This document shows positions 29,757 to 63,934 of a stretch of 64,000 nt of DNA, one piece after another. This DNA comes from Escherichia coli (GTDB lineage Bacteria > Pseudomonadota > Gammaproteobacteria > Enterobacterales > Enterobacteriaceae). The position numbers were made by a program, and so were the translations under genes. Every line of letters starts with the position of its first letter. Position 1 is the stretch's first letter. The notes beneath the pieces were generated by a model, which was not told the DNA's origin, did no database searches, and worked only from the letters and a program-made list of their open reading frames with translations. Location of the stretch: NCBI RefSeq assembly GCF_003334785.1, contig NZ_QOWV01000004.1; one strand, written 5' to 3'.

Positions 29757-30686
29757 ATGGAACGACTAAAACGCATGTCGGTGTTTGCCAAAGTAGTTGA
29801 ATTTGGCTCTTTTACCGCCGCCGCCAGACAGCTACAGATGAGCGTTTCGTCCATCAGTCAGACGGTATCAAAACTGGAAGATGAGTTGCAGGTAAAGCTG
29901 TTAAACCGTAGCACACGCAGCATTGGCCTGACCGAAGCCGGTAGAATTTACTACCAGGGCTGCCGTCGTATGCTTCATGAAGTGCAGGATGTTCATGAGC
30001 AACTGTATGCCTTCAATAACACCCCCATCGGGACGCTACGCATTGGCTGTTCTTCAACTATGGCACAAAATGTTCTCGCCGGGCTGACAGCCAAAATGCT
30101 GAAAGAATACCCAGGTTTGAGCGTCAATCTGGTTACCGGAATTCCAGCCCCCGACCTGATTGCCGACGGTCTGGATGTGGTGATCCGCGTCGGCGCGTTG
30201 CAGGATTCCAGCCTGTTTTCCCGCCGTCTGGGCGCGATGCCAATGGTGGTGTGCGCCGCGAAAAGCTATCTCACACAATACGGCATACCGGAAAAACCCG
30301 CCGATTTGAGTAGTCATTCATGGCTTGAATACAGCGTGCGGCCCGACAATGAATTTGAACTGATCGCACCGGAAGGGATCTCGACTCGCCTGATCCCACA
30401 AGGAAGATTTGTGACTAATGATCCGATGACGCTGGTGCGCTGGCTGACGGCGGGTGCCGGGATCGCCTACGTGCCGCTGATGTGGGTGATCAACGAGATC
30501 AATCGTGGGGAGCTGGAGATCCTGCTGCCGCGTTACCAGTCAGATCCACGCCCGGTTTATGCGTTATATACCGAAAAAGATAAGCTGCCGCTGAAGGTAC
30601 AGGTCGTGATCAACTCGCTGACGGATTATTTTGTTGAGGTCGGTAAATTGTTTCAGGAGATGCACGGGCGCGGGAAAGAGAAGTAA
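29757..30686 (+). CDS. aaeR: LysR-type transcriptional activator of aaeXAB, 309 aa
   Basis: N-terminal HTH (FTAAARQLQMSVSSISQTVSKLE) typical of LysR; divergent from aaeX. Confidence 0.9.
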   Translation: MERLKRMSVFAKVVEFGSFTAAARQLQMSVSSISQTVSKLEDELQVKLLNRSTRSIGLTEAGRIYYQGCRRMLHEVQDVHEQLYAFNNTPIGTLRIGCSSTMAQNVLAGLTAKMLKEYPGLSVNLVTGIPAPDLIADGLDVVIRVGALQDSSLFSRRLGAMPMVVCAAKSYLTQYGIPEKPADLSSHSWLEYSVRPDNEFELIAPEGISTRLIPQGRFVTNDPMTLVRWLTAGAGIAYVPLMWVINEINRGELEILLPRYQSDPRPVYALYTEKDKLPLKVQVVINSLTDYFVEVGKLFQEMHGRGKEK

Positions 30687-30724
30687 TTCATATTGTACTG
30701 TTACGTTGTACAAACCTGTGCCAA

Positions 30725-30780
30725 CGGGTTCCCCTCACCCTAACCCTCACCCCAAAGGGGCGAGGGGACCGTTCGTGCAC
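30725..30780. repeat. Box C-like GC-rich intergenic repeat
   Basis: GTTCCCCTCACCCTAACCCTCACCCCAAAGGGGCGAGGGGACCG read directly; resembles my recollection of the Box C family. Confidence 0.4.
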
Positions 30781-30819
30781 GTAGAAAGATTAATTATCCT
30801 TCTGAAAATAGTGAAATTA

Positions 30820-32280
<1,461 letters not shown>

Positions 32281-32309: not shown

Positions 32310-32535
32310 GCTGCCGGATGCGGCGTGAACGCCCTATCCAGCCTACGGTTATGTTCCGGTTTGTAGGCCTGATAAGACGCACAGCGTCGCATCAGGCAAC
32401 GGCTGTCGGATGCGGCGTAAACGCCTTATCCGACCTACGGTTATGTTCCGTTTGTAGGCCTGATAAGACGCACAGCGTCGCATCAGGCAACGGCTGCCGG
32501 ATGCGGCGTGAACGCCCTATCCGACCTACGGTTAT
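32310..32535. repeat. BIME: cluster of about five REP palindromic units
   Basis: Alternating GCCGGATGCGGCGTGAACGCCTTATCCGGCCTAC-type and TGTAGGCCTGATAAGACGC...GCATCAGGCA-type units read directly. Confidence 0.85.
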
Positions 32536-63569: not shown

Positions 63570-63689
63570 ATGCCTGGCAGTTCCCTACTCTCGCATGGGG
63601 AGACCCCACACTACCATCGGCGCTACGGCGTTTCACTTCTGAGTTCGGCATGGGGTCAGGTGGGACCACCGCGCTACTGCCGCCAGACA
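63570..63689 (-). rRNA. rrfF: 5S ribosomal RNA (distal copy of rrnD), 120 nt
   Basis: Minus-strand match to E. coli 5S; carries U at position 3 (UGUCUGG) and GGCAGUAGCGC variant relative to rrfD. Confidence 0.9.
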
Positions 63690-63726
63690 AATTCTTTTCT
63701 AATCTGCCGAACTTTAACCTAAAAAG

Positions 63727-63802
63727 TGGTGCTGATACCCAGAGTCGAACTGGGGACCTCACCCTTACCAAGGGTGCGCTCTACCAACTGAGCCATATCA
63801 GC
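63727..63802 (-). tRNA. thrV: tRNA-Thr (anticodon GGU), 76 nt with encoded CCA
   Basis: Minus-strand GCTGATATGGCTCAGTTGGTAGAGCGCACCCTTGGTAAGGGTGAGGTCCCCAGTTCGACTCTGGGTATCAGCACCA. Confidence 0.9.
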
Positions 63803-63814
63803 ACGCTAAATTTG

Positions 63815-63934
63815 ATGCCTGGCAGTTCCCTACTCTCGCATGGGGAGACCCCACACTACCATCGGCGCTACGGCGTTTCACTTCTGAGTTCGGCATGGGG
63901 TCAGGTGGGACCACCGCGCTACGGCCGCCAGGCA
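63815..63934 (-). rRNA. rrfD: 5S ribosomal RNA (proximal copy of rrnD), 120 nt
   Basis: Minus-strand exact-looking match to canonical E. coli 5S (UGCCUGGCGGCCGUAGCGCGGUGG...). Confidence 0.9.

Follow-up and report, generated by a model that had tools for sequence, protein, structure and literature searches.

A catalogued BoxC repeat at mRNA 3' ends between aaeR and tldD of Escherichia coli and a probable BoxC remnant between nanA and nanT

What is the GC-rich sequence that separates the convergent genes aaeR and tldD of Escherichia coli, what does it do to the transcripts that run into it from both sides, and is a shorter sequence of similar make-up between nanA and nanT related to it? These questions were raised by an original prediction, made without database searches, in which the two sequences were taken for hairpin-forming relatives, tentatively assigned to the Box C family and placed at operon ends, where they could act as stabilisers of RNA 3' ends or as protein-binding sites. 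The stretch of DNA analysed here (64,000 nt, hereafter the window) is a chromosome of E. coli K-12 type, the tested kilobase being identical to that of K-12 strains, and the matching of aaeR and tldD to NC_000913.3 gives an offset by which a window position equals the MG1655 position minus 3,359,763. The spacer between aaeR and tldD measures 133 nt, and nanA and nanT are consecutive genes of the nan operon lying 108 nt apart. Both GC-rich sequences are present as described, CCCCTCACCCTAACCCTCACCCCAAAGGGGCGAGGGGACC at 30731-30770 on the + strand, within the predicted interval 30725-30780, and CCCCTCACCCGGTAGGGGCGAGCGAGGGG at 12884-12912. Their arms do form hairpins, and both elements fold strongly: the aaeR-tldD element at -32.2 kcal/mol as RNA of the + strand (z -2.8) and at -35.9 kcal/mol as RNA of the - strand (z -2.6), the nan element at -32.3 kcal/mol on the - strand, which is the sense of the nan mRNA (z -5.3, 0 of 200 shuffles as good). 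The genes and the parts of the larger element are the following.

29757-30686, + strand: aaeR coding sequence, convergent with tldD
30820-32265, - strand: tldD coding sequence, convergent with aaeR
12920-13813, - strand: nanA coding sequence, nan operon
11321-12811, - strand: nanT coding sequence, starting at the annotated ATG
30717-30781, no strand assigned: full BoxC unit, made of the three-arm core and a flanking imperfect inverted repeat (GTGCCAACGG ... CCGTTCGTGCAC) that lengthens the stem
30731-30766, - strand: BoxC/PIT/TMECO core CCCTCGCCCCTTTGGGGTGAGGGTTAGGGTGAGGGG, type A with one mismatch, TMECO no. 14, found by regular expression
30758-30766, - strand: arm 1, C-rich, CCCTCGCCC
30744-30752, - strand: arm 2, G-rich, GGGTGAGGG (GGGAGAGGG in most family members)
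30732-30740, - strand: arm 3, G-rich, GGGTGAGGG

The identity of the aaeR-tldD element could not be settled from annotation, since the RefSeq record of MG1655 carries no repeat feature at this site, and a scan of the whole window against Rfam at gathering thresholds returned no family at either the aaeR-tldD or the nan site. The published catalogue of Holder et al. (2015, PMC4666352) was more informative. The element that was first called BoxC and then PIT is named TMECO in this work, with the consensus CCCTCNCCC N3-6 GGGNGAGGG N3 GGGNGAGGG; row 14 of its Table 1 gives CCCTCGCCCCTTTGGGGTGAGGGTTAGGGTGAGGGG, type A with one mismatch, at MG1655 3,390,529-3,390,494 in antisense, and its Table S2 places no. 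14 between aaeR (44 nt away) and tldD (53 nt away). The 36-nt core in the window is letter-for-letter this sequence, at the same coordinate, on the same strand and of the same type, and the assignment to Box C was thus correct. The three-arm consensus has a single exact match in the window, on the minus strand of 30731-30766, and was found in none of 100 shuffled windows, up to 3 mismatches being tolerated. For the arm motif GGGNGAGGG, 5 occurrences in the window compare with 1.1 expected, and 4 of these 5 fall in the aaeR-tldD and nan elements.

A profile was built with hmmbuild from a hand-registered alignment of the 22 other MG1655 copies and searched with nhmmer; this alignment was preferred to one of the 36-nt cores made with MAFFT, in which the differences in length fell at the 5' end and not in loop 1. 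The aaeR-tldD copy is matched by this profile over 30778-30728 with 51.5 bits and E = 3.5e-15 (envelope 30780-30718). Comparison with 12 solo MG1655 copies and their flanks indicates that type A copies have ...ACGGTC ahead of the core and GAAMA... behind it, and the copy in the window has the same surroundings (ACGGTC...GAAC). The predicted interval of 56 nt agrees well with the BoxC unit, for which an independent survey of stem-loop families in E. coli quotes 56 bp and 32 copies from the literature, and the unit extends to 30717-30781 once the outer inverted repeat is included, positions 30717 and 30781 being paired in the RNA fold of 30715-30790. A 76-nt BoxC query found a median of 18 places per genome by BLAST in 5,426 complete E. 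coli genomes. The two checks that the original prediction had proposed, comparison with the published consensus and a genome-wide search for copies, therefore both came out in its favour: the consensus is matched and other copies exist. The copy at aaeR-tldD has the sequence and coordinates of TMECO no. 14, shares with the family the flanks and an intergenic site between convergent genes, and differs only by a T in arm 2 where most copies have an A, which puts it one base off type A. We are practically certain that it is a genuine BoxC copy which the catalogue already contains; BoxC is a short repeat dispersed in enterobacterial genomes, has one C-rich and two G-rich arms and numbers about 18-23 copies per genome. 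BoxC was reportedly described by Bachellier et al. in the 1990s, and the PIT element by Hoyne, Maher et al. in 2000. A search for literature on TMECO and on a nanA-nanT stem-loop returned nothing further.

A role of the element at RNA 3' ends was examined against public maps of transcript termini. In the TRS analysis of Bar et al. (2023, PMC10687069), termini lie beside the hairpin on both strands.

30776-30778, + strand: primary 3' terminus of the aaeR mRNA (MG1655 3,390,539-3,390,541), about 10 nt past the hairpin
30736, - strand: primary 3' terminus of the tldD mRNA (MG1655 3,390,499), 8-9 nt after the hairpin formed by arms 1 and 2 and within arm 3
30719, - strand: second primary 3' terminus of the tldD mRNA (MG1655 3,390,482), 12 nt past arm 3

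According to Supplementary Data 2-4 (PMC10687069), these tldD and aaeR termini are supported by more than one dataset; they come from the TRS analysis of one group and concern weakly expressed genes, and neither gene has a 3' end in the Term-seq table of Adams et al. (2021, PMC7815308). The same arrangement is found at other copies of the family. The hemB termini at MG1655 388,660/647 and 388,691/687 lie beside BoxC no. 5 with the same geometry as at aaeR-tldD, the ppiC terminus (MG1655 3,959,463-465) lies inside BoxC no. 20, and the frlR terminus (MG1655 3,504,902-903) lies 10 nt past BoxC no. 15. For the copies at pstA, yihS and gntP, no 3' end is present among the TRS termini listed in the part of PMC10687069 consulted, which does not argue against one there. 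The idea of a 3'-end stabiliser thus agrees with the public data at aaeR and tldD, where termini lie beside the hairpin on both strands.

The position of these ends could be explained by termination at the hairpin itself or by trimming of longer RNAs back to it. A strong GC-rich hairpin on both strands, with 3' ends at most about 10 nt away on each, is what a bidirectional Rho-independent terminator of the two convergent genes would also give, intrinsic terminators, bidirectional ones included, likewise being stable GC-rich stem-loops with RNA 3' ends a few nucleotides downstream. However, no T/U tract follows the stem on either strand, the tails being ACCGUUCG and AACCCGUU, and a scan with the terminator consensus found no terminator-like site on either strand at the aaeR-tldD or the nan element; a promoter scan likewise gave nothing relevant at either. 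PIT elements had neither promoter nor terminator activity in earlier reporter tests, as cited in PMC4666352. Furthermore, a region of Rho-dependent termination was mapped at MG1655 3,390,148 on the - strand, antisense to aaeR (Rho score 6.0, p 5.5e-18; Adams et al. 2021, PMC7815308), the score being coarse since it is computed over 800-nt windows. Without bicyclomycin, 148 reads were counted upstream of this position and 26 downstream; in its presence the counts were 231 and 243, respectively (PMC7815308). Because bicyclomycin fully restores the read-through, transcription of tldD appears to pass BoxC and to be stopped by Rho further on. In contrast with intrinsic terminators, the aaeR-tldD element thus has no U tract, and on the tldD strand it is Rho that ends transcription; we regard its being a terminator of both genes as very unlikely.

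The absence of a U tract, together with the arrest of tldD read-through by Rho, points instead to a hairpin that blocks exonucleases. RNA polymerase would read through BoxC without terminating, Rho would end transcription on the tldD strand about 350 nt beyond it, 3'-to-5' exonucleases would trim the RNA back to the BoxC hairpin, and the hairpin would set and protect the mature mRNA 3' end as REP sequences do. Trimming of Rho-terminated RNAs by exonucleases is described by Adams et al. (PMC7815308). We favour, with some reserve, the view that BoxC at aaeR-tldD is a roadblock at RNA 3' ends, the stop of trimming at the hairpin being the step that is deduced from these data. The closest parallel is with the REP/BIME (PU) sequences, which are also dispersed GC-rich intergenic palindromes, often at 3' ends or between cistrons. 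REP hairpins are said to block 3'-5' exonucleases, for example the malE-malF REP (Newbury et al. 1987), and block by a hairpin is the mechanism proposed here for BoxC. The sequences of the two families are however unrelated, BoxC having three arms and REP two, and direct reading of both elements in the window found no REP/PU motif (GCCGGATG/CATCCGGC). BoxC has, to our knowledge, been linked to neither a RAYT-type transposase nor a protein partner. The binding sites of a sequence-specific protein, the other role that had been put forward, would account for the high conservation of the arm sequences across copies, which is the only hint in this direction, yet recent spread of the repeat and its structure explain this conservation equally well, truncated alleles are common (see below) and no binding protein is reported in the papers on the family consulted here; we hold this role to be extremely improbable.

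Comparison among strains shows which part of the element is kept. The spacer between aaeR and tldD was found in all of the 5,426 E. coli genomes (5,426/5,426), with an identity to K-12 that falls into bands. An alignment of eight strains relates the differences to a run of hexamers in the core.

30732-30749, + strand: hexamer run CCCTCA, CCCTAA, CCCTCA, of which the -6 and -12 nt alleles lack one and two units, respectively
Full three-arm allele: sequence as in the window, in K-12 and O157
-6 nt allele: CCCCTCACCCTAA, a gap of 6 nt, then CCCCAGAGG... (+ strand), in several strains, e.g. ETEC-2265, GPEC606 and ExPEC XM
-12 nt allele: two hexamers gone, in SA186

Approximate counts over the 5,426 genomes, which are derived from the identity bands of three queries and are not exact genotypes, amount to 1,700-2,300 full, 2,500-2,900 -6 nt and 570-900 -12 nt alleles. 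On these band counts more than half of the genomes have lost one arm, and the truncated alleles are the majority. Since the deletions comprise whole hexamer units, slippage is indicated: the CCCTNA run would slip in the DNA, producing the -6 and -12 nt alleles while the hairpin is kept. The folding energy of every allele examined lies between -30 and -36 kcal/mol on either strand, and the persistent feature is therefore the hairpin and not the third arm. The retention of the hairpin in truncated alleles may be a consequence of where slippage can occur and not of selection. This allelic variation at aaeR-tldD fits the category of 'TMECO mutated' loci of Holder et al. (PMC4666352).

The only role proposed so far for the repeat concerns DNA. 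Its arm layout permits, as in intramolecular triplexes of H-DNA type, a purine-motif triplex on the G-rich strand, and a stable intrastrand triplex of this strand was observed in vitro by CD and NMR with type A and type B oligonucleotides (PMC4666352); in 56 strains, TMECO loci were also more variable than control loci (PMC4666352). It could thus be that the element matters as DNA alone, a triplex of the G strand during replication or transcription causing local instability, with the RNA ends being incidental, and the polymorphism of the aaeR-tldD locus among the 5,426 genomes would be in agreement with this. However, in vivo DMS footprinting does not support the formation of a stable triplex, the indels are exact steps of 6 nt within a hexamer run for which simple slippage suffices, and the commonest alleles at aaeR-tldD have no third arm: more than half of the genomes carry two-arm alleles, in which the potential for a triplex is gone with the third arm, yet the hairpin is kept in all. 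A role in DNA alone is possible and in our opinion rather doubtful; it is compatible with a role of the hairpin in RNA, and the two are not mutually exclusive.

The second element gave a less direct answer. It does not lie at an operon end, as had been supposed for both, since it sits between nanA and nanT within the nanATEK operon; the following features of this spacer are needed here.

12881-12915, - strand: two-arm hairpin UUUCCCCUCGCUCG-CCCCUAC-CGGGUGAGGGGAAA in the nan mRNA (from the fold, nhmmer and a cross-genus alignment)
12827-12841, - strand: second small hairpin GUGGGCAUCGCCCAC, not BoxC, 8-9 nt ahead of the Shine-Dalgarno sequence of nanT
12819, - strand: strong 'alternative primary' 3' terminus of nanA (MG1655 3,372,582), 8 nt after the second hairpin (Supplementary Data 2 of PMC10687069)

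In the sense of the nan operon the DNA of the first hairpin reads CCCCTCGCTCGCCCC-TACC-GGGTGAGGGG-AAA. It folds at only -19.1 kcal/mol on the + strand, and on the nan strand the extended stem (12873-12922) reaches the UGA stop codon of nanA. Only a single G-rich arm in it is exact (12885-12893), its C-rich arm is modified, and its tail, AAAUAAAC, has no U tract. Unlike BoxC/PIT/TMECO, it has two arms only and a 4-nt duplication (CTCG) in arm 1, and it is absent from the published list of 23 (PMC4666352). Since the pattern search did not find the three-arm consensus in it, the nan hairpin was filed as a probable derivative and not as a member of the family.

Several observations nevertheless connect the nan hairpin with BoxC. 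It is the second-best match to the BoxC profile in the 64 kb (10.2 bits over 12915-12875, with a borderline E of 0.028), in an alignment that lacks 12 nt over arm 2 and loop 2 and has 4 nt inserted in arm 1. Complete BoxC copies are found at the same spot between nanA and nanT in Pseudocitrobacter faecalis (L026), P. vendiensis (L029) and Enterobacter sp. kpr-6 (L066), as an inverted pair in P. faecalis and Enterobacter sp. kpr-6, and degenerate copies are found in the Kluyvera spacer. The Escherichia hairpin aligns with the copies of these neighbouring genera with a gap exactly over arm 2 and adjoins the same conserved downstream block. A two-arm hairpin is also present in all the Escherichia species among the 80 species with a nanA-nanT spacer. 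As an observation apart, the spacer of P. vendiensis (L029:2095-2497, 403 nt) holds five BoxC copies, one in opposite orientation and then four in tandem; the tandem unit of about 75 nt is made of the core and GAGAACCCGCACCCACATAACCGCTGGCGCGGTCGGTC, which points to tandem amplification at this locus and to a mobile unit that extends beyond the 36-nt core.

An independent GC-rich stem-loop with a chance likeness to BoxC arms would explain why there are two arms only and the defining pattern is missing, why the E-value is just 0.028, why the region is single-copy by BLAST and why unrelated hairpins occupy the same position in many species. Such a chance likeness would however have to produce the second-best BoxC match in 64 kb in the same orientation as the copies of the neighbouring genera, with a 10-mer (GGGTGAGGGG) and a GAAA flank that match arm 3 and its flank, and with an alignment to full BoxC copies, next to the same conserved downstream block, in which the gap is placed exactly on arm 2, and the same kind of arm loss segregates today at aaeR-tldD. 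We consider chance unlikely. The full copies in neighbouring genera, taken together with the arm loss segregating at aaeR-tldD, make BoxC ancestry the best reading of the nan hairpin, which judging from these alignments is probably a BoxC-derived remnant that lost arm 2; the earlier description of it as a shorter relative is probably right. The loss would have occurred before the genus Escherichia diversified. The full copies of the other genera could also be independent insertions into a hot spot.

In 5,409 of the 5,426 E. coli genomes the region of the nan hairpin occurs as a single copy with an identity of 95% or more over 251 nt. In a consensus fold of seven Escherichia sequences, 5 of the 19 stem pairs vary, each on one side only and with the pairing kept in the nan-sense RNA, and no compensatory double change is present among the seven; the four changes in the main stem (4/4) are all transitions on the C-rich arm. 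Because such transitions keep the pairing automatically, the variation of the stem is weak evidence for selection. The hairpin, a stable stem-loop of the nan mRNA that begins at the stop codon of nanA, may be a second exonuclease barrier or may influence the termination of nanA. No 3' end directly after it is found among the TRS termini listed in the part of PMC10687069 consulted. Reservations bear on the idea of a 3'-end stabiliser here: the nan hairpin is internal to the operon, and the only mapped 3' end of nanA, at 12819, follows a different hairpin.

Sixteen species of several genera share this second small hairpin, in which 2 of the 6 pairs carry compensatory changes on both sides; it may either set the end of a nanA-only transcript or affect the translation of nanT. 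The wider spacer was compared by scanning a genome collection with NanA, which yielded the 80 species mentioned above. In 68 of the 80, the first 60 nt after the nanA stop form a stable fold, with an MFE of -15 kcal/mol or lower, and the motif found after nanA belongs to BoxC arms in 11/80, to REP/PU-like sequences in 48/80 and to other classes in 21/80 species. In Citrobacter, Salmonella, Enterobacter and Lelliottia, REP/PU-like palindromes (GCCGGATAAGGCG...CGCCATCCGGC) lie in the first ~110 nt after nanA, so that REP/PU-like sequences fill in these species the slot that the BoxC-like hairpin fills in Escherichia. Either small repeats insert preferentially into the nanA-nanT spacer, or it is useful to have a hairpin there. 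Upstream in the same mRNA, a strong Term-seq 3' end was mapped at 13768 on the - strand (MG1655 3,373,531), 45 nt inside the nanA frame (Adams et al. 2021, PMC7815308); it is not Rho-dependent (score 1.8, PMC7815308) and could be a premature stop of the nan mRNA close to its 5' end.

Taken together, the explanation as a whole, comprising the identity of BoxC, its role at 3' ends, the slippage of alleles and the BoxC remnant in the nan spacer, is in our view likely. The aaeR-tldD copy itself is already known from a published catalogue entry at the same coordinate, and work on the family goes back to the 1990s, so that as a discovery the finding is of little weight; mildly new are the coincidence of BoxC with mRNA 3' ends, the alleles that differ by hexamer steps and keep the hairpin, and the history of the nan spacer. 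The 3' ends beside several copies give a concrete consequence at the RNA level to a repeat whose sole proposed role was genomic instability. With its full, -6 and -12 nt alleles, the aaeR-tldD locus offers a natural experiment in which hairpin and triplex are parted, and the nanA-nanT spacer illustrates how a repeat may decay into ordinary-looking hairpins inside an operon. A more far-reaching and only tentative proposal would be that BoxC is kept for its hairpin, and not for a triplex, as a two-way protector of the 3' ends of convergent or adjacent genes, and that a slot for a hairpin after nanA, filled by BoxC, REP or private stem-loops, sets the ratio of nanA to nanT expression. The termini at aaeR/tldD, hemB, ppiC and frlR, the hairpin in all truncated alleles and the stable folds in 68/80 species are consistent with this proposal and leave room for others; if true, it would contrast with the prior view of BoxC as functionless or as an instability motif.

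Concerning the distribution of the family, 67 of the 93,614 places found by BLAST with the BoxC query are on plasmids, e.g. the 70-kb plasmid NZ_AP023208.1, and the family is therefore almost, though not entirely, chromosomal. The exact BoxC/TMECO pattern occurs in at least 120 viral or prophage contigs of IMG/VR, sometimes 2-4 times per contig; among the matching contigs listed, the G+C content ranges from 32 to 74% and the sequences of the second loop are varied. The cryptic prophage CP4-6 of MG1655 contains copies no. 3 and 4. Elsewhere in the window, an isolated BoxC-like arm at 21079-21099 (CCCCTCTCCCC, with GGGAGAGGG at 21090-21098) gave a profile E of 4.3 and is probably due to chance. 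Two copies of Rfam naRNA4 (CssrE, derived from REP325), a known feature, lie between tldD and yhdP on the - strand (32366-32435 and 32457-32526; 77.3 and 71.1 bits for a gathering threshold of 59.5), and 32366-32526 holds the only REP-derived Rfam matches of the window. Near the end of the window, two 5S rRNA genes with a tRNA between them (63572-63932, - strand) were identified by Rfam as the end of an rRNA operon.
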